DNA of 32,000 nucleotides from Candidatus Syntropharchaeum caldarium (GCA_001766815.1 LYOS01000002.1:60001-92000), one strand, 5' to 3'; counted from the first letter of the stretch, positions 12,070 through 32,000 are shown. Notes: generated by a model from the sequence alone, not told the origin. Numbers and translations are program-made.

Positions 12070-12104
12070 AAAAGAAAAAATAGTCTGTTTCCAGACCTAT
12101 TTTA
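12070..12104. terminator. Candidate bidirectional terminator between convergent genes
   Basis: Hairpin GTCTG-TTTC-CAGAC (12083-12096) is flanked by an A-run (AAAAAGAAAAAA, giving a T-run on the minus strand) and CTATTTT on the plus strand. Confidence 0.35.
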
Positions 12105-14422: not shown

Positions 14423-15157
14423 TTATGGGTAGGTATAACTTTCCACATAGGCGTTTTCGTAGCCAGACTCTGTCACGTTGTCACCGAGTGCCTGGAAGTT
14501 ATCGACTGTCCACTCGCCATCCTCATCCTCTTCGGCATCGAAATCAAGGACAACATTCTTCGTCCATGAGATGTTGACACCAACGCGGGTATGACATCCA
14601 ATGCATGCCTCGTTCGAGTCGATCATAAGGTCATCATCGATCGCCTGCTGGATGAATGCGTTGTGTGCGGCCTTCGTCCCATTTCTGCCACCGGCATCAT
14701 AGGAGTACTGGTAAGGATCGTTTGTCTCATCGCCGTTGTAATCACCAACACCATCTGGCTGATCGAATCCACCCGCGTGTGGGTAACCACCGAGCCCATC
14801 ATTTCCATACTCATGGCAGATCATACATGCGATCGTCTCTGCTGCGTGCGAGGTCGTACCTGGGGTTGAACCTGAGGTATCACCTGATGCAACACCTGTT
14901 GGCTTCTGCACCTGTGAGGAGTTCACCCTGTGACAGTCACACCCAGGGGATGCAAGGCCTTTGTGCACACCATTATCAGAATCGATCATCTCTGCGTTGA
15001 TATCGCCATGACACTTCACACAGGGTAGCTGGTTTCCATCATCACTCAGGTTATACCAGCTGTGCTGTCCACTGAAGAGTGCTGCTGTCTGTGGGAGTGC
15101 GAATATTCCGATTGCTACGATTGCAACCAGTAGCAGTCCAGTTGTATTCCTTCTCAT
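14423..15157 (-). CDS. Small multihaem c-type cytochrome (3 CxxCH + 1 degenerate CxCH), N-terminal TM/signal anchor
   Basis: 244-aa ORF with strong SD AGGAGGTGA. N-terminus [29 protein letters not shown]. Haem motifs CVKCH, CMICH, CIGCH plus CDCH. Paralogue of 22647-23342. Confidence 0.85.
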   Translation of the reverse strand: MRRNTTGLLLVAIVAIGIFALPQTAALFSGQHSWYNLSDDGNQLPCVKCHGDINAEMIDSDNGVHKGLASPGCDCHRVNSSQVQKPTGVASGDTSGSTPGTTSHAAETIACMICHEYGNDGLGGYPHAGGFDQPDGVGDYNGDETNDPYQYSYDAGGRNGTKAAHNAFIQQAIDDDLMIDSNEACIGCHTRVGVNISWTKNVVLDFDAEEDEDGEWTVDNFQALGDNVTESGYENAYVESYTYP

Positions 15158-15447: not shown

Positions 15448-15936
<489 letters not shown>

Positions 15937-15942
15937 TTAAAA

Positions 15943-16851
15943 CTATACTGTCTCAGATGAGAAATAGATCGTATCACCTGTTTTCAGATCATTGAGAAGT
16001 TCACGGTTTTCTGTCACTGTGCCCACGATGTTACTTGCTTTGAAGTTCTCGCCTGTTGGCCCATATTTTTCACTTGGTTTGAGTCGTATGCCTATCGTCC
16101 CCGCACCTTCTTTTGCCATATTTGTCACACCAATTGTAAAGCTCTCCATCACATCAGGGGTATTCTCTGGCATTATACTCCGCTTATATCCTGCTCGTTC
16201 ATCGAAGAGAACGAACGCACGGTATTTCTTCTTGACGCTCAGTTTTCCAACACCAGCCCTCATAAAGGTTGCATATCTGAAGTAGTGAAGTGTCTGGTCT
16301 ATATTTTCACATAGTTTTATCCTGAGGATCTTATCTGATGATATGCCGTATGTCCTGACCTCTCCTGTTTTAAGAATGGATATCGTATAGACTGGGTTCT
16401 GTTCTACAATGATTGCGTCGTCCTCGATCGCGCCCTCCCGGATTTGATGGATTCCACGCGCACTGAGCATCCTGTATGCCTCCTCCTGTTGCATTCCGAT
16501 CGCCATTATTCGTGGTGGTTCAACAGAAAGCATAACCTCATCGGATGCCTTCAGCCCTTCCAGAACCTCTGTATTCTCCAGTATGCCCACAACATCGTGC
16601 GATCTTGAGGGTAAAACATTGCGTCGATAGATGTAAACATTACCAATGCCATTTCCCGTGTTTCTCACTGTTACAGTGTTACTTGAACGAAAACCTGTGG
16701 GATCGTCACCATTTCCATAGAAATCAGCCGACCCCACGATCTTTACGTACGTATCGTTAATCTCTTCTACCTTCAAAGTTCGATCTGCTACGACGTAGAT
16801 ATAGTCGCTTGCCTCATTCTCACTGATGACCTTCAATCGTATTTCTTTCAT
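15943..16851 (-). CDS. Methanogenesis-marker-like protein of the A2/Mmp7 operon (possibly Mmp3/UPF0288-related; uncertain)
   Basis: 302-aa ORF with a 4-nt ATGA overlap with the upstream gene. Operon context is with AtwA and a McrC/Mmp7-family gene. No motif I can assign firmly. Confidence 0.45.
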   Translation of the reverse strand: MKEIRLKVISENEASDYIYVVADRTLKVEEINDTYVKIVGSADFYGNGDDPTGFRSSNTVTVRNTGNGIGNVYIYRRNVLPSRSHDVVGILENTEVLEGLKASDEVMLSVEPPRIMAIGMQQEEAYRMLSARGIHQIREGAIEDDAIIVEQNPVYTISILKTGEVRTYGISSDKILRIKLCENIDQTLHYFRYATFMRAGVGKLSVKKKYRAFVLFDERAGYKRSIMPENTPDVMESFTIGVTNMAKEGAGTIGIRLKPSEKYGPTGENFKASNIVGTVTENRELLNDLKTGDTIYFSSETV

Positions 16852-17393
16852 GTCTGCAGGCTCTGGAAGACCTGATCAAGTCTTTGTGTACTCAGGACTT
16901 CCTCTGATGCTACCACCAGAAGTGCGTTCTTCTCTTTCTTTACATTCCATATCCTGAACCCCTCTGGCGCCAGTAATTCAAGGAAGGTGATGATATCGTC
17001 GAGAAATTCTTCAGACGGCTCAAATATGACAGATTGCATGAAATCCTCCTCTATCTCGGTCTTTACCAAAATTTCAAGTCTATTTGGCTGTTCCACCATA
17101 CTGCGTCCAAAGGCATCCCAGAGGTATCGAAGCAACGTTGGCGCGTATGTTTCATCCTTTATGCGAAATATCGTCTCTCCATCTTCACTTTCGCTCTCCG
17201 CTATATTTGCTATTGTAACAAATGATCCACGAGCTTCTTTATAGGCAAGACGAGCCGCAAAGACTCCTTCTTCGGGATCAATCTCCATCTCTATCTTATC
17301 TATTTCTACTGGAAAGTCATGTGCTCTGATCTCTGCAACTCTGCGATAGGCATCAGCCCCCTTTGCATCCTGGGATCTTACAATAATATCCAT
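16848..17393 (-). CDS. Methanogenesis-marker-like small acidic protein (Mmp17-like size, or N-terminal part of a split Mmp3; uncertain)
   Basis: 181-aa ORF starting 3 nt after the AtwA stop and overlapping the next gene by 4 nt. Confidence 0.4.
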   Translation of the reverse strand: MDIIVRSQDAKGADAYRRVAEIRAHDFPVEIDKIEMEIDPEEGVFAARLAYKEARGSFVTIANIAESESEDGETIFRIKDETYAPTLLRYLWDAFGRSMVEQPNRLEILVKTEIEEDFMQSVIFEPSEEFLDDIITFLELLAPEGFRIWNVKKEKNALLVVASEEVLSTQRLDQVFQSLQT

Positions 17394-17396
17394 CTT

Positions 17397-18965
17397 TCAG
17401 ATAATGCCACTTTTCAGTGCGTATTCGATGCCTGTGTCAGTATCTCCGGTGAAGATCGCCTTGCCCTTATCCATTACCGTAACCCTGTCACACACGAGCC
17501 GTACAAACTCAAGGTCATGGCTCACGATAAGAAACGTGGTCTTATGTTCGTTGCGACGGTTAATAATAGAGTTGGTTATCTGGTACATTGTCATCTCATC
17601 CAGTGTGCCTGTTGGTTCATCCAGTATCATTATCTTGGGGTCCTTGAGGATAATCGATGCAAATATTATCCGATGCTTCTCTCCCTCGCTAAGCTCATCG
17701 GGATATCGTTTCAAAATTCCCTCAATTCGTTCTTCACTAAACCCAACAAGCTCAAGGACGTCATAAATTTTCTCCTCTAAGATCTCTTCCGGCACTCCTG
17801 GTACAAATCCCTGCATATTTCTGTAAACTGTCTGGTATGCGGATAGCCCATATTCCTGGTGAAGTATGGCGATCTTTTCTTTGACACGCCCCCTTTGTAT
17901 GCCACGTTCACGCATATCCACACGTTCACCATCCAGTCGAACTGTGCAGACACCTTCAAATTCGGAACTGTCACCATTGATAATTGTAACAAGTGTTGTC
18001 TTACCTGCACCGCTATGTCCCAGAATCCCGTGTATCTCGCCTTCATAAATATCGAGCGATACGCCATCCAGTGCTTTTATAACACCCTCATCCACCGTGA
18101 AGTATTCCCTGCGAAGATCTCTGCACTGAATTATTGGTTCACCTTCAAAGTTAACAACCTGTTTCTTCGACAGACGTCGTTCAGCGATGAAACGTTCCAT
18201 TACCTTGCTTGTCTCTCCCTCAAAGACTGCCTTTCCTTCTATAAGCAATATCGATCGCGGGGCCACCTCAGGTATATACGATGTCAGATGTGACGCGATG
18301 AACGTTGTTCGCTCTTTCGAGATCTCTTTTATCACATCATACATCTCTTCTGATGATTTGGGGTCAAGCGTTCCCGTAGGCTCATCAAGCAGAAGCACCA
18401 TCGGATCTTTTGCGATCTGTCTTGCCATCACGACTCTTTGCTTCTCACCGCCGCTCAGGTCCCGTGCAATATGTTTGATCCTGTGTTCAAGTGAGACGAT
18501 CTTCACGATCTCATGTGCCCGTTCCATACGTGCATCGATCGGATAATCAGAGCTATGCAGAGCTGCAAGCACATTCTCGATAACAGACCGCATCGAATAA
18601 ATCCCGGTGGCTTCCTGAAACATGATCGCAACCCGCCGTTTTATCACATCGCGCATACCTTTATCAATCTCCCAGAAGTCAACCCGCTGGAGTTCCATCG
18701 CCGAACCACAGCGCGGGCATTCTGTGCGTGATGGAGTATCAACCCGCTCGCAATTCTCACAAAAGCGAATGTTGTAGTATATATGCCCGGCTGTTGGTCT
18801 ATATTCCTCCATGCCGCGCAATGTGTACATTAGTGCGCTTTTTCCAGCTCCACTTGCTCCAATAACACCGATTATATCGTTTTCTTCCACGCTCAGGTTT
18901 ATATTATCGAGTATCTTGTTGCCTCCCTTTTCGATGGAAAGATTTTCTATCTCTATAATCTTCAT
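17397..18965 (-). CDS. atwA: Methyl-coenzyme M reductase system component A2-type ATPase (tandem ABC NBDs)
   Basis: Two NBDs: GASGAGKSA/LSGGEKQR/LLLDEPTGTLD and GHSGAGKTT/LSEGEKHR/MILDEPTGTLD. A CxxC-x10-CxxC zinc ribbon (CENCERVDTPSRTECPRCG, nt 18708-18761) is inserted after the first Walker A, as in A2 proteins. I place the start at ATG 18965 (GGAGTGGG upstream) rather than the tracked TTG 18983. Confidence 0.85.
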   Translation of the reverse strand: MKIIEIENLSIEKGGNKILDNINLSVEENDIIGVIGASGAGKSALMYTLRGMEEYRPTAGHIYYNIRFCENCERVDTPSRTECPRCGSAMELQRVDFWEIDKGMRDVIKRRVAIMFQEATGIYSMRSVIENVLAALHSSDYPIDARMERAHEIVKIVSLEHRIKHIARDLSGGEKQRVVMARQIAKDPMVLLLDEPTGTLDPKSSEEMYDVIKEISKERTTFIASHLTSYIPEVAPRSILLIEGKAVFEGETSKVMERFIAERRLSKKQVVNFEGEPIIQCRDLRREYFTVDEGVIKALDGVSLDIYEGEIHGILGHSGAGKTTLVTIINGDSSEFEGVCTVRLDGERVDMRERGIQRGRVKEKIAILHQEYGLSAYQTVYRNMQGFVPGVPEEILEEKIYDVLELVGFSEERIEGILKRYPDELSEGEKHRIIFASIILKDPKIMILDEPTGTLDEMTMYQITNSIINRRNEHKTTFLIVSHDLEFVRLVCDRVTVMDKGKAIFTGDTDTGIEYALKSGII

Positions 18966-19000
18966 AGACCCACTCCGTTGCAAACTTAAATCAAGGCTTA

Positions 19001-19780
19001 TTAATTCTTTTCTGTTTTTGCAGACAATGGCATGAGCGTAGAGGTTCTGTAATATAGATCATTTATACGCGCATATTTTGCACCCCAGAACTCAACCACC
19101 TCTTCAACCGTGCCTGCTGTACCTGTGGCAGTATAGGTAACCTCCATCCCCTCCTCAATCTCTGGTGCTGTTTCGATGGCTTTCTCTTCGCCAGACTCGA
19201 CAAAGACGATTCGTTTTATTTCCTCAGTACTTCGCAGTGGAGTGATATGCCCCCTGATGACACCTGTGATAATACCAACAACCCTACCTTTTGTGAGTCT
19301 CTTCTCTGGTAGGGGGCGAACATACTTGGTATCAACCCCCTCACGTGCCAGATCCTCGTAATCGATTGGACACTGGCATATCACGATCGATGGCTTATCG
19401 AAGAGTTTGAGAAAGTAGATTTGCTTATAAATTATATGTCGTGCGACATTGCCGTGGTGAAATATGAGTAGTTTTGAACGTTCGATCCGTTCGCGCTCAT
19501 CCTCTTCCAGTTTGAATTCAACCTTCACAAAATGCTGTTCCGCCTTGATACCTTTTCCCTTACGAAGGACAAGCACCGATGCTTTGATCCCATACGCACG
19601 CAACCGCTGTGTTATATCACAGACTGGATATGGGATGTGTCGATCCGAAAAGTCCATCGCGATTATCAGTGCATCCTCGCCATACTCATCCGAGTGCGTG
19701 CCTCCACGCGCTATACCGTAACCAAGCCCCCCTCCAAACTTTGCCCTACAGTTGACATAGTGGGCCTTTCTGCCTATCAT
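19001..19780 (-). CDS. McrC/Mmp7-family protein (Mmp7-like, with about 60-aa C-terminal extension)
   Basis: 259-aa ORF colinear with McrC: MIGRKAHYVNCR..GGGLGYGIARGGT, HIPYPVCDIT, SVLVL, HHGNVARHIIYK, PSIVICQCPIDYEDLAR, VVGIITGVIRG. The extra C-terminal beta-rich tail fits the Mmp7 branch. Confidence 0.75.
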   Translation of the reverse strand: MIGRKAHYVNCRAKFGGGLGYGIARGGTHSDEYGEDALIIAMDFSDRHIPYPVCDITQRLRAYGIKASVLVLRKGKGIKAEQHFVKVEFKLEEDERERIERSKLLIFHHGNVARHIIYKQIYFLKLFDKPSIVICQCPIDYEDLAREGVDTKYVRPLPEKRLTKGRVVGIITGVIRGHITPLRSTEEIKRIVFVESGEEKAIETAPEIEEGMEVTYTATGTAGTVEEVVEFWGAKYARINDLYYRTSTLMPLSAKTEKN

Positions 19781-19794
19781 AAATCACACCTTTC

Positions 19795-20655
19795 TTATAC
19801 AGATGGAACACTCAGCGGAAGTTCAATGATTATATCGTCCTGTGTGCCCCTCTTTATGCTGCCAAACTCACCGAGTTTACCAAAGTAAAATTCCATCTCT
19901 CCGAGTTTCTCTGCATATTCATCATAGGATGCGTTCACTCTGAGACCGCTCATTTTGAGTACCACGTTCACACCAAACTTTGATTCAATCTCGGTTTTTA
20001 TATAGGGATAGGTTGCAGGAACATCAGGTCGAAGGCTTCCGATGATCGAGATTACACTCTCCATAAATGCACCTATTATCCGTTTATCATCAGGATCATC
20101 GAACATCGTTGGTATCCTTGTAATAGACGGGATGAAAATCAGCTCATCATCAGACTCAAGATCTGCATAGCCTGTCACGATCACAGGTACATTAAGCCTT
20201 CTGCAGAGTTCCATCTTCTCACGGATACAGTGCTCAAAACATCCAAACATGAAGATCGCCAGATCGTGCTCCTCGATCATCATCCGCTCTTCCCTCATCA
20301 GAATCGCCTTTCTGCCAACGCCTCTTGCAGGTGCGATTGTGTTCACCTTTGCGCCAGCCTGCCGCAGTGTCTCAACCGTGCTGCAGTGTGGAAAGGGTGT
20401 GTGATGAAGATTAAATGAGGGGATGATCACCGCAACTTCGATACCATAGAGCGGTACAGTGATAACCCTTCCTGAATGCTTACGGAGAGCTGCCCGTTTA
20501 CGCAGAATGTTCACCGATTCATGATCTATCATCACATCAAATTCTGCAACACCACCCATCTGGTCTATGTTCAGGACAAAACCGCCAAGATCCTCTATGA
20601 ACTCAATTATTTCGTCTGATTCAAACGCATTTCCGATATATTTTAGCGGCATCAT
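19795..20655 (-). CDS. Cys-containing protein of unknown function in the A2/Mmp7 operon
   Basis: 286-aa ORF, 14 nt from the Mmp7-like gene. It has conserved-looking Cys/His patches (HHTPFPHCST, FMFGCFEHC). I cannot assign it to a marker family. Confidence 0.45.
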   Translation of the reverse strand: MMPLKYIGNAFESDEIIEFIEDLGGFVLNIDQMGGVAEFDVMIDHESVNILRKRAALRKHSGRVITVPLYGIEVAVIIPSFNLHHTPFPHCSTVETLRQAGAKVNTIAPARGVGRKAILMREERMMIEEHDLAIFMFGCFEHCIREKMELCRRLNVPVIVTGYADLESDDELIFIPSITRIPTMFDDPDDKRIIGAFMESVISIIGSLRPDVPATYPYIKTEIESKFGVNVVLKMSGLRVNASYDEYAEKLGEMEFYFGKLGEFGSIKRGTQDDIIIELPLSVPSV

Positions 20656-20673
20656 TTTTATTCCACGCCGTAT

Positions 20674-22455
20674 TCAGCTCAGATGGAAATACCTGTATGC
20701 ATCTCCCGTATCCTCAATCTCACCGCCTTTTGAGACAAAGTCGGCGTACTTTCGATTGACAAATTCATTACAGATAGTCTCAGGATCGCCTGTCATCAGA
20801 ATTTCGCCACGGTGTATCAGCAGTGCCCGGTGTGCAAGCTCCTTCACCGCATCCAGTTGATGGCTCACGAGGATTATTGTGAGGTTGTGCTCCTTGTTGA
20901 GGGTTTTTATTGCATTTATACATTTACGCAGCGAGATAGGATCGAGATCTCCGAAAGGCTCATCGAGCAAGAGGACCTCTGGCTTCTCCGTCATGTGAAG
21001 AGCAAGCGCAACCCGTATCTGCTCACCTGCACTGAGTTCATATGTATAGTGATCCATGAGAGAAAGAGGAAGATCGAGCGCTTCAAATATGGGTTTCATC
21101 CGCTTTTTAGCTTCGTCTGCAGGTATCGTTGGGAATAACTTCCTCAGAATCCCTGGATCAAGTTTCAGCTCCCTGAGCATGTCTTTCATCTCATCTTCTG
21201 GCAGATCTGCAAGTCTATAAAGTACATCCAGCTTCACGTCACTTAGTCCCATTTCTCTCGCCCGTTCGACCACCTCAGGCAGGAATCGCACGTCCTTTAG
21301 CCCAAGTTTCTGCTCAAAGAGGTGCAGCACGATTTCATAGTGCGTGAGCGCAAACTCCTGATGTAACGTTGAGATGTTAAGACGCGCCTTTACAGCATCA
21401 TAACCATAGGTACAGATATTTGTCCAGCGCTCTTCACCACCATCGTTGATCCTGTAGGTAACCTCACCAAACTGAGGAGGTTCAAGTCCTGCAAGCAACC
21501 TGATCAGTACTGTCTTTCCAGCAGCACATGGTCCAACGAGTGCAAGTATCTCGCCTTCGTAGATATCGAAGTTGAGATTTTTCATCTGGATCGTCTCGAT
21601 AAACTTTGCACCTGATGTGGTTATCTGGTAACGCTTCCAGAGGTTGGTGAGGCGCATCTTCGGCACTTCTCGTGGTATCGATGGCTCAACGGGTTGATCG
21701 ATCTTTGCAACAAACTTTTTAATGATCTCATCTGGTTTCCCCTCATCAACCACCTTTCCTTCCTCAATCCAGAGCACCCTATCAGCGAGAGTTTCGTGTA
21801 TTTCTGGCATATGAGAGACAAATACAACAGTAACACCAGCATTCTCATTTATTTTTTTTATCGCATCAAGCATCATCCCTCGACCAACAGGATCTATCAT
21901 GGTGGCTGGTTCATCTACAAGAAGAACACGTGGATTTGCTGCGAGCTGTCTCGCAAGCAGAACACACTGCTTCTCACCGCCGCTGAGGATATTGTAGTAG
22001 TAATACTTCTTATCCAACATGCCAACAATATCAAGAATCTCGGAGGCCCGTTTGAAGAGTCGTTTATAGTCGTTTGAACCTGTTGTAGGTATCTCTTCAA
22101 AACCTGTCTCAAGCTTTCCCAGTTTTCGCATCACATTATTTATCACACTCTCAGGCCATAGTGCAAACGAACGTTGCAGATGCAGTGCGGTTATCTTCTG
22201 GAGTTCAAGCTGTTCATTGGAATTAGAGTCAGGTGTGAGTGTGATACCATCAACCCTTACAGATCCTTCTTTAAATGATTCCACGCCCCTTAAAATTCGC
22301 AAGAGTGTGGTTTTTCCTGCACTGCTCCTTCCTAATATACCCAGAACTTCACCCTCATCGACTGAGAACGAGACGTTCTCAAGAGCAGTGTGTTCTTTCT
22401 CAATCTTTGAGATCTGATAAGTCTTCGTTAAATTTTCTACTTCGATGATCTTCAT
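20674..22455 (-). CDS. Divergent tandem-NBD ABC ATPase (A2 paralogue-like), first gene of the operon
   Basis: 593-aa ORF with strong SD AAGGAGGT. NBD1 is GRSSAGKTT/LSGGEKQ/LLVDEPATMIDP. NBD2 is GPCAAGKTV/LSAGEQIR/LLLDEPFGDLD. About 165 aa separate Walker A and signature in NBD2 (a helical insert). No TM segments and no zinc ribbon. Confidence 0.75.
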   Translation of the reverse strand: MKIIEVENLTKTYQISKIEKEHTALENVSFSVDEGEVLGILGRSSAGKTTLLRILRGVESFKEGSVRVDGITLTPDSNSNEQLELQKITALHLQRSFALWPESVINNVMRKLGKLETGFEEIPTTGSNDYKRLFKRASEILDIVGMLDKKYYYYNILSGGEKQCVLLARQLAANPRVLLVDEPATMIDPVGRGMMLDAIKKINENAGVTVVFVSHMPEIHETLADRVLWIEEGKVVDEGKPDEIIKKFVAKIDQPVEPSIPREVPKMRLTNLWKRYQITTSGAKFIETIQMKNLNFDIYEGEILALVGPCAAGKTVLIRLLAGLEPPQFGEVTYRINDGGEERWTNICTYGYDAVKARLNISTLHQEFALTHYEIVLHLFEQKLGLKDVRFLPEVVERAREMGLSDVKLDVLYRLADLPEDEMKDMLRELKLDPGILRKLFPTIPADEAKKRMKPIFEALDLPLSLMDHYTYELSAGEQIRVALALHMTEKPEVLLLDEPFGDLDPISLRKCINAIKTLNKEHNLTIILVSHQLDAVKELAHRALLIHRGEILMTGDPETICNEFVNRKYADFVSKGGEIEDTGDAYRYFHLS

Positions 22456-22584: not shown

Positions 22585-22592
22585 TTTATATC
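22585..22592 (+). promoter_or_regulatory. Candidate TATA box for the plus-strand cytochrome operon
   Basis: CCACAACC-TTTATATC lies 55-62 nt upstream of ATG 22647. Confidence 0.4.
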
Positions 22593-22646: not shown

Positions 22647-23342
22647 ATGAAAAAACACACACCGCTTCTGCTCATGATCGCCGTACTTGCGATCGGTATA
22701 TTCGCACTCCCCCAGAGCGTTGCGCTTTTCTCAGGTCAGCATTCATGGTATAATCTCACTCCACAGGGTAACGATGTACCCTGTGAAAAATGTCATGGCG
22801 ACATCGCTTCAGAGATTGCATCAAGTGGTGCACACAAAAATATCGAGTGCGGCGGATGTCACAGAGCAGATGCAAGGGTTGGCTATGCCGGGGACTGGGA
22901 GGGGGATGTGGATCCAGGACAGGGTGCACACGCGGCATCGACTATTGAGTGTATGATCTGCCATGACAGGGGCACAAACTTCACACACTCCAATATCGGA
23001 AGTGATGAGTGTTCTGACTGTCACACCTCGCCTTTTGTGGCGCCTGGGGCAGGAGGCTTCAATCTGACTGATCCTTCTGTCTTGCCGTCTGATACCGGCA
23101 CAAAAGCCGCACACATGCAGTTTGTCCATGACGCGATCAACGAGACGCTCATGGAGGGTGCAAACGAAGCCTGTATAGCATGTCATACGCATGTGGGTGT
23201 CAACATCACATGGACGAAGAACGTGGTGCTCAACTTTGAAGCATCAGAGAATGAGACTGGAAGCTGGTCGATCCCTGAGTTTTCAGCAACAGGGGATAAT
23301 GTGACAGAATCAAACTATACAAACACCTGGGTAAATACTTAA
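22647..23342 (+). CDS. Pentahaem c-type cytochrome with N-terminal TM/signal anchor
   Basis: 231-aa ORF with five CxxCH motifs (CEKCH, CGGCH, CMICH, CSDCH, CIACH). N-terminus [30 protein letters not shown]. Paralogue of 14423-15157. Its stop is 13 nt before the giant cytochrome ATG. Confidence 0.85.
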
Positions 23343-23355
23343 AAGGGGGGTTAAA

Positions 23356-26300
23356 ATGAATGAAGGAATGAAAAAGGTCAAAATCTTTATTCTCGTATTG
23401 CTTATGATCGCATCACCGTTTTCGATGCTTACTGCAGGTGCTGCTATCGATGGCTCAAAGCATGACTTCACGTTTGAGAGTGAACTTACGCCAAATGGTG
23501 CGTGTTCCGCCTGCCATGAGTGGCGTACCATGACGTGGGCACGAAACCTGAGTGAAGAGGAGGCTTATTTTAACCAGACAGAAGATCCAAACTACGTCCA
23601 TGATCCTACCATAAAATGCTATGACTGTCACAGTGGCACTGCGGCAGACAATGATCCCAGTTACACGCTTTTTATCAATACAACACTTGGCAGATATATC
23701 CCGCAGGACGTTGCCTTTGATGCCAATATGAAGGGAAACGATCTATCCTATGACAGCTCACCCTCTGATGATGAGACCGGATACTACGAGTCATCGACAT
23801 CAGGCCACTACATAAAGACGAACGCAACAGGCCTGACGAATATTGAACCTGGTGATAAGCTCCCATGCACCGACTGTCATGAACCACACGAGACAGAACC
23901 CACAAATGAGGTCTTCATAAAAGGAAGCTCCGAATATCCACTTGGTGGAAAGGTTGTATCAAACTTAAAAGCAAGCACAAACACCCGATCTGGTACTGGC
24001 ACTGGACGTGAGATCTGTGCGGTATGTCATGGATACAGCGATTCAGGCATAGCTGTCAGGTTTGTTGATGTTAATCCCCTCTATGGCTCGACCGATAGGA
24101 TCGTTCAGACCCCGTCAACGGTATCCCAGCATGCAGAGAATGATTCAACACCATGCACAGACTGCCACTCACATAGCACCCCGGCATCGTATTTTGTCGG
24201 AATCAGCAGCCACAACACCCACTTAACCGCCGAGTTTGGACCCAAAATATCCTCGTGCACAGGTGCCGATGGCTGTCACAGTGAGGGAAACTTCAGCCGC
24301 TTCAACGACAACCTCACACTCTCAGCGACTCATGCCTGCGATAACTGCCACAGCCCGAATGGAACATACAATGGTGTCACCCTTGCCAAGGCAAGCTGGG
24401 AAGAAGGCGTCTACAACGGCACAGACTTAAAATCAAGCAAGGAGAAGTGGTGTGCAAGCTGTCATGATAAAGAACCTGCCAGCTCTATGGGGAATGGAAG
24501 CGGTATAAACGCCCCGAATATCGTCGGGATGAATCTAAGCGGTAGCTGGCAGAGCCCCGTCGCTATTATAACAAATCAGACGGAAAACGTCAGTGATGCA
24601 ACAAACCTGCTGGATGGTGACGTTGAGACCGGTGCGAGTGTGAGTGGGGCATCCCAGATCGTCTTTGATCTTGGAGAGAGTACAGAAGTCTCCCATATCA
24701 GGCTTTACACATCTGCCAGTTCCACGGTCAAGTGGGAGGTGTACGGGAGCAATGATCTTTCAAACTGGACGAGAATACTCTATGGTCAGGATGTGATCTT
24801 TTCCGCTCCTGCATGGCTTACAGGTGAAGATGAGGGATGGGATGAGAGCAGGGTTGACAGGATCATACCTGTGAGATACATCAAGCTCTACAAGAGGAGT
24901 CCGTGGCCCGTGGGGAGTGGTTCTCAGCGTGAGTTTGAGTATAAAGCAGATATACGGTATGGATACTATACCACCGGTCACAAGATTGCCTGCACCAACT
25001 GCCACAATAGAAGTAGCGCGCATATCGATGGAACCTCACAGACCTACAACACAACCCTTGATAACTATCAGACAGGTTTCAGGCTGAAATATCTTGAGGT
25101 TGAGAATGAAACCGTCCCCTCACTTGAGATACCAAGAGTCGACTGTAACTGGGGTGATTATCCAAAAACCTCAAACGACTTTGCACTCTGTTTCTCATGC
25201 CACAACAAGTATAACCTCCTCGGGGATGCGAGTGGTACAGGCGACTACCATAAGGATCCACCCCAGACAAACTTCAGGAACAACACCACAAACGCCCACC
25301 TCATCCATCTGCAGGGAAGGGGATACTGTGGAAACAATCCTGACTGGGACTCAGACTGGAACGGCACAGCAGACTCACCACAGAGTTGCACCGCGTGTCA
25401 CAATGTTCATGGCTCTCCTGCTCCTGCGATGACAAGACACGGAGAACTTGTGAGTATCAACGATACCCTTGAGAAGGCTCCCCTCCTGAACCTGAAGTAC
25501 ATAAACGCAGACGGAGAGCTTGATCATAATCTCTCAGATGCCACCCAGAGTATCGGCGGAAGGACACAGTTCTATGGTGCAGGACCCGGAAACGTTGCGA
25601 AGAATAAGGTGTGTAACATGTGCCACAATGATCAGATTACCTATTATCGCACACCAGTACCTCCCACCGTAACCTGTGGTAATGGATCAGGAACAGGAGG
25701 CTGCCACAGCCCCACCGCATACTCTTCCTCTGCAGCAGGCAGCCACAATACTCATCTAACCGCACCCAGGGGACCAAACATAACATCCTGCACAGGTGCT
25801 GATGGCTGCCACAAAGGCAACCACACCGGTCTCTTCAACGATGGTTTACCGCTATCAACAACCCACAGATGTGATAACTGCCACAGCCCGAACGGGACAT
25901 ACGATGGTGTGAATGACTCCACAATCGGAGCAAAACCCAACTGGGAAAATGGAGTGTACAACAATTCCACGACATTAAAGTCAGGCAAAGAGAAGTGGTG
26001 TGCAGGATGCCATGATGACGAACCGGCGTATAGTAAGGCAGAGTACAGCGAGGTCATCGTGGATAACACCGAAGCTTCTTTTGCTGGTTCATGGAGTACA
26101 TCCTCTCACTCAACCGATTATGGAAGCAACTACAGATACAATGGTGCAGGTTCAGGCACTGAAACAGCAACGTGGACACCTAACCTGCCAGAATCTGGTA
26201 ATTACTCGGTCTATGCATGGTGGCCCATATATGTTTCAGGAAGAGCAACGAATGCACCGTACACCGTGTACTACAGCAGCGGGTCTGAGACGGTAAGGGT

Positions 26301-29300
26301 GAACCATAAAGCAGGAGGGGGTGGCTGGAACTACATCGGCACATGGAACTTCTCTGCTGGAACATCAGGTTACGTTGTGCTCAGTGATGATGCCGATGGA
26401 ATTGTAATGGCTGATGCCATCAGATTTGTTAAAGGCGGGAATGCCACGTACGCACCCAATATCATCGGTGATAATACAAGCTATGGGTTCTATGCAACAG
26501 GTCATGGTCGAAGCGGTGTTGTGGATTGCCTGTCCTGTCATGATTCAGATAAAACCCATATCGATGGAATTCAGCGAACGTATGAAGCAAATGAGACAAC
26601 AGGTGATGCGATCACACCCTACAATAACAGCTACCGTTTAAAGGATCTTGATGGGTTGCCAGCGATGGTAATGCCAAGAAAAACAACATCCACATTTAAT
26701 ATGCAGGCCTACTGGCGGGATTTTAACCTCTGTTTTGACTGTCACAACAGGTTTGAGGTGCTGGGTGAAACATCATCGGATATCAGTAACACCAACTTCT
26801 GGAATAATGATTCAAGTATCTCAAACTCACACTGGCTCCATCTCGGGATAGATAGCAAGCACTTTGACTCTGATTATGACAGTTCTGCAGACTCACGTGA
26901 GAGCTGCATCGCATGCCACAACGTACACGGTTCGCCAACAGGACCGATGATAAGACATGGAGAACTTATAAGCTATCCAAGTACAGCGAACAAGGAGCCT
27001 GCGCATAATTTCTACTATCTTCTCCCTGGAGATGGTTCAGCCACTGCCAGGTTTACACCCACACTTGCAGGCGGAACATATGATATCTATGCATGGTGGA
27101 GCTCGCACTCAAACCGTGCGACAAATGCAAAGTATATAATATACCATGATGGTGGTAGCGCTGAGGTAATCGTCAATCAGGAGGAGAACGGCTCACAGTG
27201 GAACCTCCTTGGCGAGTACAATATTACAACTTCAAACGGCACGGTCGTTCTGACATCAGATGGCGCCAACGAGTACATCATGGCAGACGGAATCCAGTGG
27301 AACAGAACAGATGGCGGAGATACTGTCTATGTTGATGAACCTGATGCCACCTATACTGGAAGCTGGACTGTGGAGACCTCAAACCCAGACAAATATTACG
27401 GAGATAGCACGAGATACTACTATGCACCCATCAGGAATGCGACTGCAAACGTGAATAAGAGTACTGGCGGCACCTTCTATGTAAGCGGTGTAATCACTGC
27501 AAATCATCTCTGTCAGATGTGTCATAGCAACGTCCAGTACAACAGAGACCCGTATACCGGACCAAGAGTTCCATACAGTGATGCAACCCCTGATAACATC
27601 TCAAACTTTGAGAGTAACACTGTAACATTCACGGCTTTCGTTACCGATGTGGATGAGAACATAGCAAATGTTACCATCGATCTCTCAAGTTTTGGTGGTA
27701 ACGTTAGCCAGAGGATGTACGATGACGGAACCCACGGTGATACCAAGGCAAATGATGGTGTGTATAGCTACCAGTTCACAGTGCCTGCAGGTGTTGATGA
27801 TGGTCCAAGGAGTATCACAGTCACCGCAACAGACGATGATGGTAATAGCGGTGAAGGTCTGATCGATCTTACCGTCTATCAGCCAGGCGCACTGATCATC
27901 GATGATGAAGATGCAAGCTTCACCGGAACATGGGGAGAATCCACGGCAGACGAGACGACGTATGGAACAGGATACCGCTGGCATGCTTCAGGCACCGGGA
28001 GCAATACAGCAACGTGGAGTGTCAACATCACAACCGCCGGTAACTACACCGTCTACGCACGATGGGTTACAGGAAGCAACCGTGCTACAGATGCACCCTA
28101 CACGATTAACTATGAAGGAGGCAACGAAACAGTAAGGGTTTCACAGCGGATAAAAGGAGGAAAGTGGAACCGTCTTGGCAACTACTACTTTGACGTCGGC
28201 GAGTACTCGGTCGTTCTCACAGATGATGCTGATAACTACGTTATAGCTGATGCGATAAAGCTTGAATCTGAAGCCCCTCCAGCTTACCACCCATGGCCAA
28301 TCGCCGACAATCCCGATGCTGAATACAACGGAACAGGATGGTATACTGGAACAGCCGATAGCGGTTATTATGGCTCAGACTTCTACTACCATGCCTCAGG
28401 CACAGGAGAAAATACCGCAACATGGACACTCGCAGTTCCAGAAGCTGGAAAGTACGATGTGTACGCATGGTGGGCAGACGGCTCAAACCGTGCAACCAAT
28501 GCACCCTATATGATTAACTACGAAGGAGGCAGTGAAACAGTAAGGGTTTCACAGAAAATAAATGGAGGAAAGTGGAACCTGCTTGGGACATATTCATTCA
28601 ATGCAGGTAACTATTCAATAGTACTCAGTGACGATGCAGATGGATTCATCATTGCCGATGCAGTGAAGTTTGAGCTTAACCAATCTGTATGGCTCACCCC
28701 TTCCTCAATCCAGTGCACAAACCTCACCAACGCTTCACTCCTGATCGATAACAGCACATCAACTGCCAACGCGCTTGATACCGGAGATGAACAGTATGTG
28801 GTCTTTGATCTTGGTGCAAGATACACCGTTCCATCGATCAAGATGTACACTGATGGTAGCGGCAACTACACATGGGATGTCTATATGGGGGATAACATAT
28901 CTGATCCTGCCTGTTGCAACCATTCAAGCTGGGGCACGCCTGTCCTTGAGAACTGGACTCCCTCTACTTCGGGGTGGAACGAGGTCAACCTGACAACACC
29001 CGCCACAGCGAGATACATAAAGCTCATGCGAAACGATACAGGTGATGATCTTGCCGCAGACAGCCTCTATGAGTTCATGTTCGACCCACCAACGGCAACG
29101 CTCACCTTTGAACTCCACTCATACGCTGATATGCATATCTATGACCCGGAGGATCGCCATCTCGGGATGAACTACACGACAGGCGAGATCGAGAACCAAA
29201 TTCCCGGAGCAGTATATGACTTCGGTGATGTCCAGACTGCTACCCTGCCAAAGCTTGCAGTGGGGGAGTACAGGGTGATACTCAAAGGAACGGGGACAGG

Positions 29301-30258
29301 TGGATATGAACTGACCGTCACGGGCGAGGATGATGATGGTGTACTCACCAGTGAGACCGTTGCTGGAAATATCACAGCAGGTGAGATCCATGATGCAACC
29401 GCAGCGGTTAACACCACAGACATCACAAACATCACGATAGCACTCGAAGATGAGCCAGAGCCAACGATCAATGCAGACGGAGTTGATAATGTCACACTCG
29501 CTGATCTCTATCCTGATATCGATGAGGTTGATATCGACCCCCTCGATCCTGAGACGATCGATACCACAGGGATGCCAGATATTGCCATTCACACCGCCTA
29601 CATGGTCAACGCCTCAGGAGATGGTGAGTACACACTGAGGTTTGAGGATGTGGAGAACGCTGAGCTTATCACTGCAGTCTATAAGATCAATGAAGAGGGT
29701 GAATGGATCGAGCTTCCAGCAGTGATCAATGGATCGAGAGTTGAGGTTACGATGGAAGCAGGTGATCCACCGGTTATTTTTGCATATCCAGCACCAGAAA
29801 CACCGACTACAGATGACACAAACACCGCATCAACAGGTGGTAGTGGTGGTGGGGGCGGCGGAGGTGCAGGCCCGAAGGACTCAGATGGTGATGGTGTACC
29901 CGATCGTCAGGAGCAGCTTGATGGGACAGATCCTCTCAACCCTGATACAGATCATGATGGACTGAACGACTTTGAGGAGCGTGTGGCAGGAACAGACCCG
30001 AACAATCCTGATACCGATGGTGACGGAATAATCGATGGTGAAGATCCGGATCCAGCGATTATGAACTTCACACAGAAGGTGAAGAAGACCTTCTCTGATA
30101 TTTCAGATACCATCTTTAGATCGGGTTCAGAGAATGCGCCGGTACCATCTTCAGAGAGCGGTGCAGAAGAGAAGACGCCAGGGTTTGGAAGCTTTGCCTG
30201 GATCGTAGCAGTTCTTGCTATGGGGTATCTGGTAAGAAGGGAAAAAGTTGAAAAATAG
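23356..30258 (+). CDS. Giant (2300 aa) secreted, PGF-CTERM-anchored multihaem cytochrome with interleaved beta-sandwich binding modules
   Basis: SD AGGGGGG lies 5 nt upstream. Signal peptide [26 protein letters not shown]. There are 17 CxxCH, 2 CX4CH and 1 CX8CH between nt 23503 and 27525. Discoidin-like, golvesin-C-like and Ig-like domains, TSP type-3 repeats and a PGF-CTERM follow; see the sub-features. Confidence 0.9.
24204..25626 (+). repeat. Haem supermodule 1 (internal duplication unit)
   Basis: Ordered motifs: [53 protein letters not shown], [discoidin-like insert], [55 protein letters not shown]. Confidence 0.75.
24544..24942 (+). other. Discoidin / F5-8 type C-like domain A
   Basis: [56 protein letters not shown] shows the typical DG...T.W...(I/V).(F/V)DLG....(I/V)..(I/V).(L/M)Y pattern of discoidin/CBM32-like modules. 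Confidence 0.55.
26050..26436 (+). repeat. Golvesin-C/Xly-CBD-like domain copy G1
   Basis: [116 protein letters not shown]. Confidence 0.6.
27004..27452 (+). repeat. Golvesin-like copy G2 (N-terminally shortened) plus a trailing N-terminal half-copy
   Basis: G2 reads [89 protein letters not shown]. It is followed by [34 protein letters not shown] (27322-27452), which has only the first strands. Confidence 0.5.
27592..27882 (+). other. Ig-like beta-sandwich domain
   Basis: [84 protein letters not shown]. It appears homologous to the N-terminal visible part of the dockerin protein at 31805-32000. Confidence 0.5.
27889..28266 (+). repeat. Golvesin-C/Xly-CBD-like domain copy G3
   Basis: [120 protein letters not shown]. 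Confidence 0.6.
28291..28675 (+). repeat. Golvesin-C/Xly-CBD-like domain copy G4
   Basis: Same pattern as G3. It shares perfect nucleotide runs with G3 at a 408-nt offset (gaaacagtaagggtttcacag at 28126-28146 vs 28534-28554, and ggaggaaagtggaacc). Confidence 0.6.
28690..29085 (+). other. Discoidin / F5-8 type C-like domain B
   Basis: [71 protein letters not shown] parallels domain A. Confidence 0.5.
29878..30054 (+). repeat. Thrombospondin type-3-like Ca-binding repeats
   Basis: [59 protein letters not shown], preceded by a Gly-rich linker [12 protein letters not shown] (29836-29871). Confidence 0.7.
30178..30255 (+). other. PGF-CTERM archaeosortase sorting signal
   Basis: The C-terminal ..[30 protein letters not shown] consists of a PGF motif, a hydrophobic helix and a basic tail, at the extreme C-terminus. 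Confidence 0.8.
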
Positions 30259-30279: not shown

Positions 30280-31590
30280 TTAAAATATCTGCTGTGGAGG
30301 AGTGTTAGCTCCTCCCGGTGTTGTATTCTCAAAGATTGCAAAGTCGTTGCTATCAACGTCTGTATCCATGCCATCGGGGTATCTGCCTGCAGACGCACCA
30401 TCTTCTGGTGCCTCAGCATTGTCTGAAACGTCGCCATCATCGAAGTCACCGTATGTAACTCTATCGATCACATTCCCGCCATTTTTCAGGATGATGGTAT
30501 CTCCGCCATTGTTGAGTCCGAACGAGAAATCAGTGGACTTGTTCAGCAGCAAGAACCCATTTGCAGGTATTGTTTTTCCGTTTAGACTTGCAGGTGAAGC
30601 AGTGTTATCCTCGATCGTCCAGTCATCAAGCGAAATATCCTCGTCCATCAGGTTGTAGAGTTCGATCCATTCTGAATCACCTGGTAAAGGATCTGAAAGA
30701 AACTCATTCACAACAACCTTCGGGACAGCATCACCCGCTTCGATCGTAAATGTCCCATCAACCACCCTATGTGTGATCTCATCCACACCGTCTGTGAGTG
30801 ATATAACCGTAAGATCGAGTGGGCTTGTGTCACCAATAGCCCCAACTGCTTCAAAGGTAATCTGAGCAAAGACCACATCGCCTGTAAGGCTCGTTGGGAA
30901 GTTGAGGGCTGTGTACTGGATAGATCCAGCGCTGTTGTTGATATCTCTATATAGCGGGAAGTTGAACTCGCCATCGGCAACATCAAGCACCTGCACGACA
31001 TCTGGGTCGAAGTTCAGGATGATGTTTGCTCCCAGTCCCTGGTAGAGGTTCTCGATCATGATCGGAACTGTGGTAGTCTCACCTGCTTCACAGCTTAGAT
31101 TCTCTATCGATACGATCGTATCAAGCACGGTAAATGTCCCGTCAACCACTGTATGCGTGATCTCATCCATGCCGTCTGTGAGTGATGTAACCGTAAGATC
31201 GAGCGGGCTTGTGTCACCACCCTCACCAACTGCCTCAAAAGTTACCTCTGCAAAGACCACATCGCCTGTAAGGCTCGTTGGGAAGTTGAATGCCGCGTAC
31301 TGCACATATCCTGCCTCATTATCGATCTGGCTATAAACCGGGAAGTTGAAATCACTTCCATCTATATCAAGCACCTGCACGACATCTGGGTCGAAGTTCA
31401 GGATGATATTTGCTCCCAGTCCGCCATCAAGATTCTTGATTATGATTGGAACGGTCACACTCTCGCCTTTGCCAGCAGCCACATCCTCGATCGAGATGAC
31501 CGTCTCTTCGTTTGCAGCTGCTGTAATTACAAGAGCTGATGCTACAATGAGTATGGCAACCACAGATGCAGCCAGTTTATGCCTCATCAT
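30280..31590 (-). CDS. Secreted scaffold-like protein: 2 tandem cohesin-like domains + lamin-tail domain (LTD)
   Basis: 436-aa ORF with signal/TM MMRHKLAASVVAILIVASALVITAAA. Two 128-aa cohesin-like repeats (..VTVPIIIKNLDGGLGANIILNFDPDVVQVLDI..GDVVFAEVTFEAVGEGGDTSPLDLTV..). The C-terminal LTD reads VVVNEFLSDPLPGDSEWIELYN..DISLDDWTIED....GFLLL......GLNNGGDTIILKNGGNVIDRVTYGD. Confidence 0.8.
   Translation of the reverse strand: MMRHKLAASVVAILIVASALVITAAANEETVISIEDVAAGKGESVTVPIIIKNLDGGLGANIILNFDPDVVQVLDIDGSDFNFPVYSQIDNEAGYVQYAAFNFPTSLTGDVVFAEVTFEAVGEGGDTSPLDLTVTSLTDGMDEITHTVVDGTFTVLDTIVSIENLSCEAGETTTVPIMIENLYQGLGANIILNFDPDVVQVLDVADGEFNFPLYRDINNSAGSIQYTALNFPTSLTGDVVFAQITFEAVGAIGDTSPLDLTVISLTDGVDEITHRVVDGTFTIEAGDAVPKVVVNEFLSDPLPGDSEWIELYNLMDEDISLDDWTIEDNTASPASLNGKTIPANGFLLLNKSTDFSFGLNNGGDTIILKNGGNVIDRVTYGDFDDGDVSDNAEAPEDGASAGRYPDGMDTDVDSNDFAIFENTTPGGANTPPQQIF
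30736..31503 (-). repeat. Tandem cohesin-module duplication (2 x 384 nt)
   Basis: Perfect 40-nt (30866-30905 = 31250-31289) and 42-nt (30982-31023 = 31366-31407) matches at an exact 384-nt offset. Confidence 0.85.
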
Positions 31591-31601
31591 GGTAAACCAC
31601 C

Positions 31602-32000
31602 TCAGCGAAGCAGTTCATAGCCAGCAATCCCGTTAATATGTGATGCCAGATAGACCGCATCGAGCAGGTTGACAACACCGCTGCCATCAACGTCTGCAAT
31701 TCTCTCGTTCAGGTCATATCCAGGGACCCCGAGTGCATAGCATCCAAGATACACAACGTCATCCTCATCCACATCACCATCATCATCGACATCGCCGTTC
31801 TTTTTCACAGTGAGCTCAACACTGACCGATGTCTCTGAGAGACCGGGTGCATTTGTTGCGTTGACTGGCAGGAGATACGTACCTGGTGTGGTTCCATCAC
31901 TTGCATTTGTTACAATTGTGTAAACACCTCCGCCAGTATCAGTCATCACTGCTTCACTATCTCCACCTATCTGAGATAGATCGATCGTAACCGAATCGAT
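31602..32000 (-). CDS. Dockerin-bearing surface protein, 5'-truncated by the window edge
   Basis: The frame is open to nt 32000 with no stop upstream of the tracked GTG 31949. The C-terminal type-I-like dockerin has two Ca-binding segments, NGDVDDDGDVDEDDVVYLGCYALG and IADVDGSGVVNLLDAVYLASHING (about 31605-31802). It is preceded by an Ig-like domain, VTIDLSQIGGDSEAVMTDTGGGVYTIV... Confidence 0.75.
   Translation of the reverse strand: MDSVTIDLSQIGGDSEAVMTDTGGGVYTIVTNASDGTTPGTYLLPVNATNAPGLSETSVSVELTVKKNGDVDDDGDVDEDDVVYLGCYALGVPGYDLNERIADVDGSGVVNLLDAVYLASHINGIAGYELLR

Follow-up and report, generated by a model that had tools for sequence, protein, structure and literature searches.

A 2300-residue, 20-haem cytochrome with carbohydrate-binding-module-like domains encoded beside an AvECN-like gene in Candidatus Syntropharchaeum caldarium

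The giant cytochrome gene and its upstream neighbor

The locus described here lies in a window of 32,000 nucleotides (the whole stretch of DNA that was analyzed; GCA_001766815.1 LYOS01000002.1:60001-92000, with positions counted from its first letter) from the archaeon Candidatus Syntropharchaeum caldarium, also known as Ca. Syntrophoarchaeum caldarius, an alkane oxidizer of the class Syntropharchaeia and not a member of ANME-2 or Methanoperedens. S. caldarius is a thermophilic, butane-oxidizing organism partnered with the sulfate reducer Ca. Desulfofervidus. Six proteins encoded near the giant gene are identical to S. caldarius proteins in the series OFV67971..OFV67994; the 2300-aa product itself had no exact match, probably because another start is annotated. 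The longest open reading frame (ORF) of the window, at 23356..30258 on the plus strand, encodes a giant multihaem cytochrome of 2300 amino acids (aa) plus stop, for which a mature mass of ~243 kDa without haems and glycans and an isoelectric point of 4.4 were calculated. Directly upstream on the same strand is a gene for a small multihaem cytochrome (22647..23342). One locus joins a homologue of the archaeal nanowire subunit AvECN, whose structure has been solved, a predicted tethered 20-haem protein with nanowire-like modules, and a set of carbohydrate-binding-type modules by which the wiring could be physically attached.

A motif scan of the giant cytochrome revealed 20 haem sites, all within aa 50-1390, comprising 17 CxxCH motifs (aa 50, 88, 171, 221, 267, 328, 366, 546, 612, 678, 753, 839, 882, 1058, 1126, 1184, and 1386), two CX5CH motifs (CTGADGCH, aa 301 and 812), and one CX8CH motif (aa 774). 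The 17 CxxCH and the single CX8CH had already been listed in a first-pass annotation made from the sequence alone, which had also reported two CX4CH motifs that are in fact the CX5CH pair. In shuffled versions of the protein, CxxCH occurred by chance 0.03 times on average and at most twice, and 40 of the 45 cysteines of the giant cytochrome sit in haem motifs. The CX5CH and CX8CH motifs were counted as credible haem sites because canonical CxxCH motifs align with them in homologues. At the profile level, Cytochrome_C7, Paired_CXXCH_1, and Cytochrom_c3_2 scored 52.7, 38.1, and 37 bits, against Pfam cut-offs of 24.8, 20.6, and 25, respectively. The earlier description of a very large secreted multihaem cytochrome is supported. 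Moreover, histidines are concentrated in the haem modules, which hold 49 of them (20 in motifs and 29 outside), and the inserted and stalk domains have 0 to 5 each. The 29 non-motif histidines could supply distal axial ligands for the 20 haems; they include invariant residues in both family alignments (A1 and A2), and five invariant non-motif histidines (36, 151, 178, 259, and 273) accompany the five motifs of the first haem module. Given this concentration and invariance, bis-His haems fit the protein.

The product of the upstream gene (OFV67992.1; 231 aa, with five CxxCH motifs and an N-terminal hydrophobic segment) matched AvECN of Archaeoglobus veneficus (PDB 8E5G) with an E value of 2.2e-37 (aa 8-231 against 8-242 of 8e5g_A), and all four AvECN haem motifs (CEKCH, CGGCH, CMICH, and CIACH) were aligned in it. 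Only 13 nt separate it from the giant gene, and this gap holds a GGGGGG ribosome-binding site before the ATG; a TATA-box-like TTTATATC read from the sequence at 22585..22592 (plus strand), 55 nt upstream of the gene for the small cytochrome, is a candidate promoter. The upstream gene product is a probable nanowire subunit and operon partner, and the two genes are probably co-transcribed as a two-gene operon. A second AvECN-like paralogue of 244 aa is encoded in the window at 14423..15157 on the minus strand (tblastn E 9e-66; 49% identity to the upstream gene). AvECN-like genes also adjoin relatives of the giant cytochrome at three related loci (L004, L003, and L031): two lie upstream in Syntrophoarchaeum sp. 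12019_3, one lies downstream in 'Archaeoglobus sp. JdFR-22', and the minimal family member P0005 has two upstream and two downstream. Unlike AvECN, the upstream neighbor carries a fifth CxxCH (CSDCH, aa 121-125), which falls in a stretch not present in AvECN and recalls the predicted five-haem 'leaky' OmcE-like proteins (bioRxiv 10.1101/2025.10.22.684050).

The giant ORF was confirmed as a genuine gene. A repeat-driven misassembly or a nonfunctional pseudogene might be suspected, since internal repeats are present, the source is a metagenome-assembled genome (MAG) of an uncultured consortium, and relatives vary in length (1776, 1707, and 2300 aa). However, the 6.9-kb reading frame is intact, and the internal DNA repeats do not exceed 84% identity or a length of 188 nt, which we judge insufficient to cause a collapsed assembly. 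In addition, assembly-level comparison found collinearity with the long-read-closed genome of Ca. Ethanoperedens E37 (23396-28680, 95%), with 'Archaeoglobus sp. JdFR-22' (25738-29801, 77%), and with Syntrophoarchaeum sp. 12019_3 (L004; 22573-25910 and 28690-30244, 96-98%). These three independent assemblies jointly span every junction of the gene and support its order across 26.0-28.7 kb, the part for which the first-pass annotation had considered misassembly. An artefact or pseudogene is accordingly very improbable.

Haem modules, inserted domains and the C-terminal stalk

The domain order of the protein was obtained from a self-comparison of fragments (BLAST), segment-wise Pfam searches, and a hidden Markov model (HMM) made from the Golvesin copies; all features below are on the plus strand. 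A signal peptide recognized by eye (aa 1-30, 23356..23445; K-rich n-region, hydrophobic core, AGA/A) is followed by haem module A (aa 31-269, 23446..24162), which bears haems 1-5 and resembles OmcE according to a comparison of profile A1 with the PDB. Next come haem sub-module H1 (aa 270-397, 24163..24546; one CX5CH and two CxxCH) and, after a first F5/8 type C domain, sub-module H2 with a link (aa 531-782, 24946..25701), which has haems 9-13 including the CX8CH and was delimited by motifs, fragment comparison, segment Pfam, and alignment. A second such unit consists of H1' (aa 783-897, 25702..26046), again with one CX5CH and two CxxCH, and H2' (aa 1031-1215, 26446..27000; haems 17-19, delimited by fragment comparison, segment Pfam, and alignment), separated by a Golvesin_C domain. 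H1 is 57-60% identical to aa 783-915, that is, to its duplicate H1', and H2 and H2' share 32-56% identity, so that the whole arrangement of H1, insert, and H2 is duplicated. The last haem site, CQMCH at aa 1386 (27457..27570; motif and homologue alignment), closes a composite module described below.

Profile A1 (module A plus H1) matched OmcE of Geobacter (7tfs_A) with an E value of 1.3e-8 over 170 profile positions; three haem motifs and the KHD motif near the N terminus are among the matched positions. Further matches of this profile were to 9yuq_N, the OmcE nanowire of Desulfuromonas soudanensis (E 1.9e-4), and, weakly, to OmcS, and H1 matched cytochrome c554 (1bvb, E 5e-5); the identities of the nanowire PDB entries were taken from PMC12954529 and bioRxiv 10.1101/2025.10.22.684050. 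Module A thus appears to be remotely homologous, at the domain level, to the OmcE nanowire subunit. The N-terminal ~170 residues share with OmcE (7TFS, 9YUQ) the KHD motif, three aligned CxxCH, and conserved histidines, and this likeness would by homology imply an insulated stacked/T-shaped haem packing. OmcE, in contrast, is a free tetrahaem subunit of ~230 aa that polymerizes through inter-subunit His-haem ligation, and its counterpart here opens a chain of 2300 aa, predicted to be tethered, and need not polymerize. The likeness to AvECN belongs to the upstream gene; in the giant protein it is only remote and confined to H1, where hhalign aligned the upstream protein at a probability of 92% and 17% identity in a motif-driven alignment that calls for caution. 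AlphaFold2 (AF2) modeling of module A plus H1 from a 17-sequence alignment gave a mean predicted local distance difference test (pLDDT) score of 41, and the haem part of a second model stayed below 50.

The first-pass annotation had given a haem spacing of one site in 67 aa between aa 50 and 1390, which is arithmetically right, and had called it far sparser than that of compact multihaem cytochromes. That sparseness is not intrinsic: the overall density is low because domains are inserted into the haem part. The haem modules alone (969 aa, 20 sites) have 48 aa per haem, a closer spacing than that of the nanowire cytochromes OmcE (232 aa for 4 haems), AvECN (262 aa for 4 haems), and OmcS (407 aa for 6 haems).

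Three lectin-like domains interrupt the haem part. F5/8 type C domain 1 (discoidin-like; aa 398-530, 24547..24945) occupies the H1-H2 linker and matched PF00754 at aa 411-515 (E 4.2e-9, 37.0 bits against a cut-off of 28.2); PF22633 scored 30.5 bits against the whole protein (cut-off, 27.8). Golvesin_C domain 1 (aa 898-1030, 26047..26445) occupies the H1'-H2' linker, with a Pfam E value of 1.1e-37 and a match to residues 905-1038 of PDB 6f2p (E 3e-24). The third, a circularly permuted Golvesin_C (Golvesin-2; 27001..27456), was located with our own HMM between haems 19 and 20, where aa 1217-1318 correspond to profile positions 28-130 and the following aa 1324-1367 correspond to positions 3-47. 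Over the whole protein, Golvesin_C (PF25275) scored 419.5 bits against a cut-off of 31.6 in four stretches, three of them full copies (898-1026, 1512-1639, and 1647-1775) and one in permuted order. The family assignment of the first-pass annotation is therefore confirmed, its count of four full golvesin domains is not, and the interleaving with haem sites that it described holds for these three domains, the remaining lectin-like domains being in the haem-free part. Of its two discoidin-like domains, the first is above the cut-off and the second, taken alone, is borderline (see below).

The AF2 model of the permuted Golvesin-2 had pLDDT values mostly of 72-92, with the first trailing strands at 87-89, ~59 near aa 1341-1350, and <50 after ~aa 1362. 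In Foldseek searches with this model, the top match was 6f2p, the C-terminal domain of a Paenibacillus xanthan lyase (E 2.4e-5), followed by CBM6 and CBM35, and sequence searches concur on 6f2p for the Golvesin domains (E 3e-24 to 2e-29). The inserted domains are thus predicted to have carbohydrate-binding-module-like folds, in line with the earlier proposal of such domains between haem segments, which is supported by Pfam, our HMM, and Foldseek. The sequence homology to 6F2P is clear and the fold is shared with CBM6 and CBM35; unlike in xanthan lyase, where the domain belongs to a polysaccharide lyase, the Golvesin domains here accompany cytochrome modules, and one copy is permuted between haem sites. 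The F5/8 type C domains resemble the CBM32 type. No experimental ligand for Golvesin_C was found in the literature searched, where the xanthan-binding-module papers treat CBM84 and CBM66.

Comparison with homologues indicates that these lectin-like domains are insertions at two linkers and one conserved loop of an otherwise conventional haem scaffold. P0005 and P0006, which at 1267-1300 aa are the shortest members of the family, have modules A, H1, and H2 in one uninterrupted run, and so do bacterial cytochromes with 26 haems (P0010, P0012, P0017, and others). F5/8 type C domain 1 separates 'APNIVG' from 'YGYYTTGH', between which P0005, P0006, and the bacterial homologues have few residues, and in the alignment Golvesin-1 directly precedes 'APNIIG', the equivalent in the second unit. 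The permuted Golvesin-2 always comes after the third CxxCH of H2 and before another CxxCH. Its order of [28-130] and then [1-45] is kept in Ethanoperedens, JdFR-22, and P0004 (with one extra full copy between) and also in two bacterial MAGs (50% identity) and a dozen metagenomic proteins. An exhaustive profile search recovered 1522 proteins at E <= 1e-30, and among the 150 best representatives of clusters formed at 50% identity, ~40 matched the whole composite module in one stretch; those of the ~40 with organism names are few and bacterial (Thermodesulfobacteriota or 'bacterium'). The bacterial MAG cytochromes with three haems, a permuted Golvesin_C, and a further haem include L005 (JAILZY010000020.1), L006 (JBFMGO010000018.1), P0122, P0131, and P0140; they are from Thermodesulfobacteriota and unclassified bacteria and reach up to 50% identity in the best matching segment. 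Since bacterial MAGs encode it, the composite module crosses the domain boundary, and with ~40 sequence clusters in archaea and bacteria this unit of haem, permuted Golvesin_C, and haem is a defined object for structural work.

The C-terminal ~900 residues are haem free, and the Ig-like domain and TSP3 repeats that the first-pass annotation placed there find support in Pfam and NCBIfam; its Gly linker is also present. The Ig-like/choice-of-anchor-X domain (aa 1406-1510, 27571..27885) matched NCBIfam NF041940 at aa 1453-1478 (40.4 bits against a cut-off of 25), with weak Big_13 and Big_9 matches. It is followed by the tandem Golvesin_C domains 3 and 4 (aa 1511-1776, 27886..28683; Pfam E 1e-71 for the pair, also found by our HMM) and by F5/8 type C domain 2 (aa 1777-1895, 28684..29040). 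The latter scored 27.0 bits alone at aa 1790-1891 (Pfam cut-off, 28.2), is 31-33% identical to domain 1, and is conserved in P0005 and P0006 as part of the family's conserved C-terminal core. A strongly acidic region (aa 1896-2165, 29041..29850; 56 D+E against 7 K+R) is 52-54% identical in P0005 and P0006 and had no match in Pfam, NCBIfam, or PDB. Then come a Gly-rich linker, with a Gly run at ~aa 2170-2180, and two bacterial TSP3 (Ca-binding) repeats (29851..30090; PF18884, E 6.8e-10). A dockerin-like role of these repeats, considered in view of a cohesin gene downstream, was rejected, as TSP3_bac matches and Dockerin_1 does not.

The protein ends in a Ser/Glu-rich linker and a PGF-CTERM-like sorting signal read from the sequence (30091..30258), with PGFGSF, a hydrophobic stretch, and the basic tail VRREKVEK. 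The PGF motif, hydrophobic stretch, and basic tail of the PGF-CTERM end proposed earlier are therefore present, but the profile PF18204 reached only 13.2 bits, below its cut-off of 18.8; the C-terminal part of TIGR04281 matched the end of the giant protein with E 0.012. N-glycosylation sequons (N-x-S/T) number 68, against 30 +/- 4.8 in composition-matched shuffles, a 2.3-fold excess. In this layout, the ~900-residue stalk is proximal to the putative anchor and the haem-bearing N-terminal 1350 residues are distal.

Relatives, horizontal transfer and cassette exchange

A copy of ~5.3 kb (window 23396-28680) with 95% DNA identity occurs in Ca. Ethanoperedens thermophilum, an ethane-oxidizing member of the Methanosarcinales (GoM-Arc1) that belongs to a class other than Syntropharchaeia. 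It lies at 10047-15335 of L002 (LR991653.1) and is also present in L001 (LR991654.1); the E50 genome was built by read mapping on E37, so neither Ethanoperedens record is independent of the other. The two copies differ by 118 synonymous and 102 nonsynonymous codon differences, and their identity is a mosaic, with its low of 80% over the first 100 codons and its high of 99.7% over codons 401-500 and 601-700. Reciprocal best-hit proteins of the two organisms have ~62-65% identity (Table S3 of PMC7175092). The Ethanoperedens copy stands in an unrelated context beside transposase remnants and ends exactly at the boundary between Golvesin-4 and F5/8 type C domain 2, and so is without the stalk end and anchor. 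It is transcribed (FHEFKHOI_00149) at 250-273 reads for each kilobase and each million reads mapped (RPKM), like its housekeeping neighbors. Thus, the haem/lectin part can be retained and transcribed without the AvECN-like partner and the anchor, since this copy has neither. We consider that the Ethanoperedens copy probably stems from a recent horizontal transfer between alkane oxidizers. Ca. Syntrophoarchaeum associates with Ca. Desulfofervidus, and the Ethanoperedens and Syntrophoarchaeum cultures are reported to share this partner (PMC7175092).

The relative in Syntrophoarchaeum sp. 12019_3 (L004, JAOQII010000027.1, 9218-15110; 1707 aa) is 96-98% identical at the gene ends, and its middle, equivalent to 25910-28690, is swapped for a different haem segment without Golvesin domains. 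The genomic context of L004 differs on both sides of the two-gene unit, which points to cassette exchange or mobility of the unit. A breakpoint at 28680-28690 is common to this relative and to Ethanoperedens. The same boundary at 28.68-28.69 kb and the swapped middle indicate that the gene evolves by cassette exchange at domain boundaries. Moreover, the 95% copy in another class and the cassette swap together suggest that surface electron-transfer parts move among syntrophs that reportedly share a partner.

Proposed role and surrounding genes

Direct interspecies electron transfer is widely assumed in alkane- and methane-oxidizing consortia, and its molecular parts are ill defined; cytochromes and pili have been proposed to mediate it in these consortia (PMC7175092). 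Large cytochromes with surface domains are already known from anaerobic methanotrophic (ANME) archaea, whose multihaem cytochromes (MHC) of types A, B, and C have S-layer, peptidase-M6-like, or pectin-lyase domains, and partner recognition by a sugar-binding fold has been proposed there, with the pectin-lyase fold of type C directed to the partner cell wall (PMC9012536). For carbohydrate-binding and cohesin/dockerin domains of ANME, a function in contact between cells or in the adhesion of cytochromes has likewise been suggested (PMC5244752). The giant cytochrome resembles MHC A/B/C in being a very large, extracellular protein of a syntrophic alkane/methane-oxidizing archaeon with surface or adhesion domains that bear no haem, with expanded CXnCH motifs, and with a probable membrane anchor at the C terminus. 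It differs in having Golvesin_C and F5/8 type C domains inside the haem region, a PGF-CTERM-like anchor, distal haems, and a host among the Syntropharchaeia. No S-layer or peptidase-M6-like domain (MHC A/B) was found at E <= 1 in the whole protein (Pfam and NCBIfam) or in ten segments (Pfam). A beta-helix/pectin-lyase domain (MHC type C) had no Pfam match; in addition, type C is without an anchor and the giant protein has a putative hydrophobic anchor at its C terminus. As it lacks what defines types A, B, and C, we regard it as a different build of the same broad kind, within which the haem/Golvesin/F5/8 type C architecture appears to be new. The decahaem cytochromes of the MtrC/OmcA type are also exposed at the cell surface and have beta-barrel domains in alternation with their haem domains, but PF22113 matched weakly, below its cut-off, and the giant cytochrome has another architecture, no porin partner, and an archaeal host. 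The architecture, the haem/permuted-Golvesin module, the AvECN pairing, and the Ethanoperedens transfer were not described in the literature searched, the scope of which excludes Baquero et al. 2023.

An extracellular electron-transfer role of the giant cytochrome is very probable, and since it adjoins a putative nanowire gene and was apparently transferred recently, it probably helps to wire the archaeon to its sulfate-reducing partner. As the best overall account, we give somewhat better than even credence to a relay or anchor, tethered and glycan binding, within an apparatus that uses nanowires for interspecies electron transfer. In such a scheme, a Sec signal would direct export, haem would be loaded outside the membrane, N-glycosylation would probably be heavy, and the PGF-CTERM-type signal would probably give the C terminus its lipid anchor. 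Outward from the anchor would follow the TSP3/Gly linker, the acidic region, the discoidin-like domain, two Golvesin_C domains, and the Ig-like domain, a haem-free stalk of ~900 residues on the anchor side that would hold the haem-bearing 1350 residues away from the membrane. The haem part may form a conventional bis-His wire of nanowire-like units, an OmcE-like unit and then the duplicated H1-H2, with the inserted domains projecting sideways and the ~20-haem chain remaining continuous. Electrons would have to arrive via other carriers, since the haems are distal to the anchor; most simply, these carriers would be AvECN-like filaments or small cytochromes, with which the haem chain may exchange electrons. 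The lectin-like modules might attach to glycans in the consortium matrix, on the partner bacterium, on glycosylated filaments, or in the S-layer, and such binding would fix conductive elements between the archaeon and Ca. Desulfofervidus; glycan binding by the inserted domains is a close call that falls just short of even. Cassette variation and transfer fit a surface component under selection for partner contact.

A direct physical association of the giant cytochrome with the nanowire is rather doubtful. More speculatively still, the protein might be a dedicated cell-surface anchor, terminator, or partner-targeting adaptor of an AvECN-type nanowire, its haem units docking to or capping the filament and its lectin-like domains attaching the filament to glycans of the partner or matrix, as a cassette exchanged horizontally among different alkane-oxidizing archaea with a reportedly common partner; we consider this specific version unlikely. 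Nanowire initiation and termination have been raised as open questions for OmcE (bioRxiv 10.1101/2025.10.22.684050), and if the adaptor reading were true, it would offer the first candidate explanation of how the cytochrome nanowires of archaea come to be attached and aimed. The locus supplies concrete candidates for the anchoring or targeting of conductive filaments.

Several observations weigh against such a tethered relay or anchor. With its haems distal to the anchor, the protein alone could not bring electrons from the membrane; the haem part has no usable model, so that chain continuity across the inserts comes from homology; the PGF-CTERM profile stays under its cut-off; and co-transcription with the AvECN-like gene is deduced from spacing alone. 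The Ethanoperedens copy has been kept and transcribed with neither the neighbor nor the anchor, and its expression is moderate, ~50-fold under the top small cytochrome. The F5/8 type C and Golvesin domains could be structural spacers or oligomerization modules. Moreover, we know of no ligand for any Golvesin_C domain, and even for the xanthan lyase domain a binding role is assumed.

Other explanations share part of this evidence. Given its size, its many haems, its probable C-terminal membrane anchor, and its origin in a syntrophic archaeon that oxidizes alkanes, the protein might be an S-layer-spanning conduit like ANME MHC type A/B, leading from the pseudo-periplasm to the outside, but the Pfam searches of the whole protein and ten segments for S-layer and peptidase-M6-like domains were negative, and with haems 900 residues from the anchor, it would be the haem-free part that crosses the wall zone; we give this conduit a low probability. 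Alternatively, the protein could be a terminal reductase and adhesin for minerals (Fe/Mn oxides or conductive particles), bound by its beta-sandwich modules. Relatives of the haem modules do occur in MAGs named for sulfur and iron oxidizers (Thiodiazotropha, Sedimenticolaceae, and Sideroxydans), domains II/IV of MtrC/MtrF gave weak matches, and PMC7082337 links large multihaem cytochromes to metal reduction in Methanoperedenaceae. The inserts, however, are structurally closest to carbohydrate-binding modules, and the synteny with a nanowire subunit fits the glycan and mineral readings alike. To our knowledge, S. caldarius occurs solely as an obligate syntroph of a sulfate reducer, which counts against a mineral substrate, and this explanation is improbable.

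A third possibility is that the main role of the protein is adhesion or scaffolding of the matrix, with the haems serving as an electron store (capacitor) or redox sensor instead of a through-conduit. More than half of its residues are in non-haem binding-type domains, genes with cohesin/lamin-tail and dockerin domains lie directly downstream, and a biofilm role has been proposed for bundled OmcE filaments (bioRxiv 10.1101/2025.10.22.684050). Twenty conserved haem sites, conserved distal histidines, and nanowire-homologous modules would nevertheless be costly for a purely structural protein, and a scaffold of this kind has little probability.

The genes around the two cytochromes were also inspected. 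Downstream and convergent are a gene for a secreted cohesin and lamin-tail-domain protein (30280-31590, minus strand) and a gene for a dockerin-containing protein (31602-31949, minus strand), surface-assembly parts of a kind noted as abundant in ANME; the giant cytochrome itself has no cohesin or dockerin match in Pfam. On the other side, a cluster divergent from the cytochrome operon (15448-22455, minus strand) encodes two McrC proteins (one fused to DUF2098), two double-ABC ATPases (component-A2-like), a DUF2113 protein, and a riboflavin/lumazine synthase-like protein; several of the McrC-cluster genes, including those with DUF2098 and DUF2113, are what we take to be often-named methanogenesis marker genes. 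Elsewhere in the window are genes for a thermosome, an HMG-CoA reductase, and a geranylgeranyl reductase; with the McrC cluster, these agree with S. caldarius as the source. A URO-D family protein, with relatives annotated as methylcobalamin:CoM methyltransferase, is encoded at 12097-13170 on the minus strand. Its exact match of 357 aa was found only under Guaymas 'Methanosarcinales archaeon' MAGs, and the S. caldarius record has 351 aa, which probably reflects a difference of annotated start codon.

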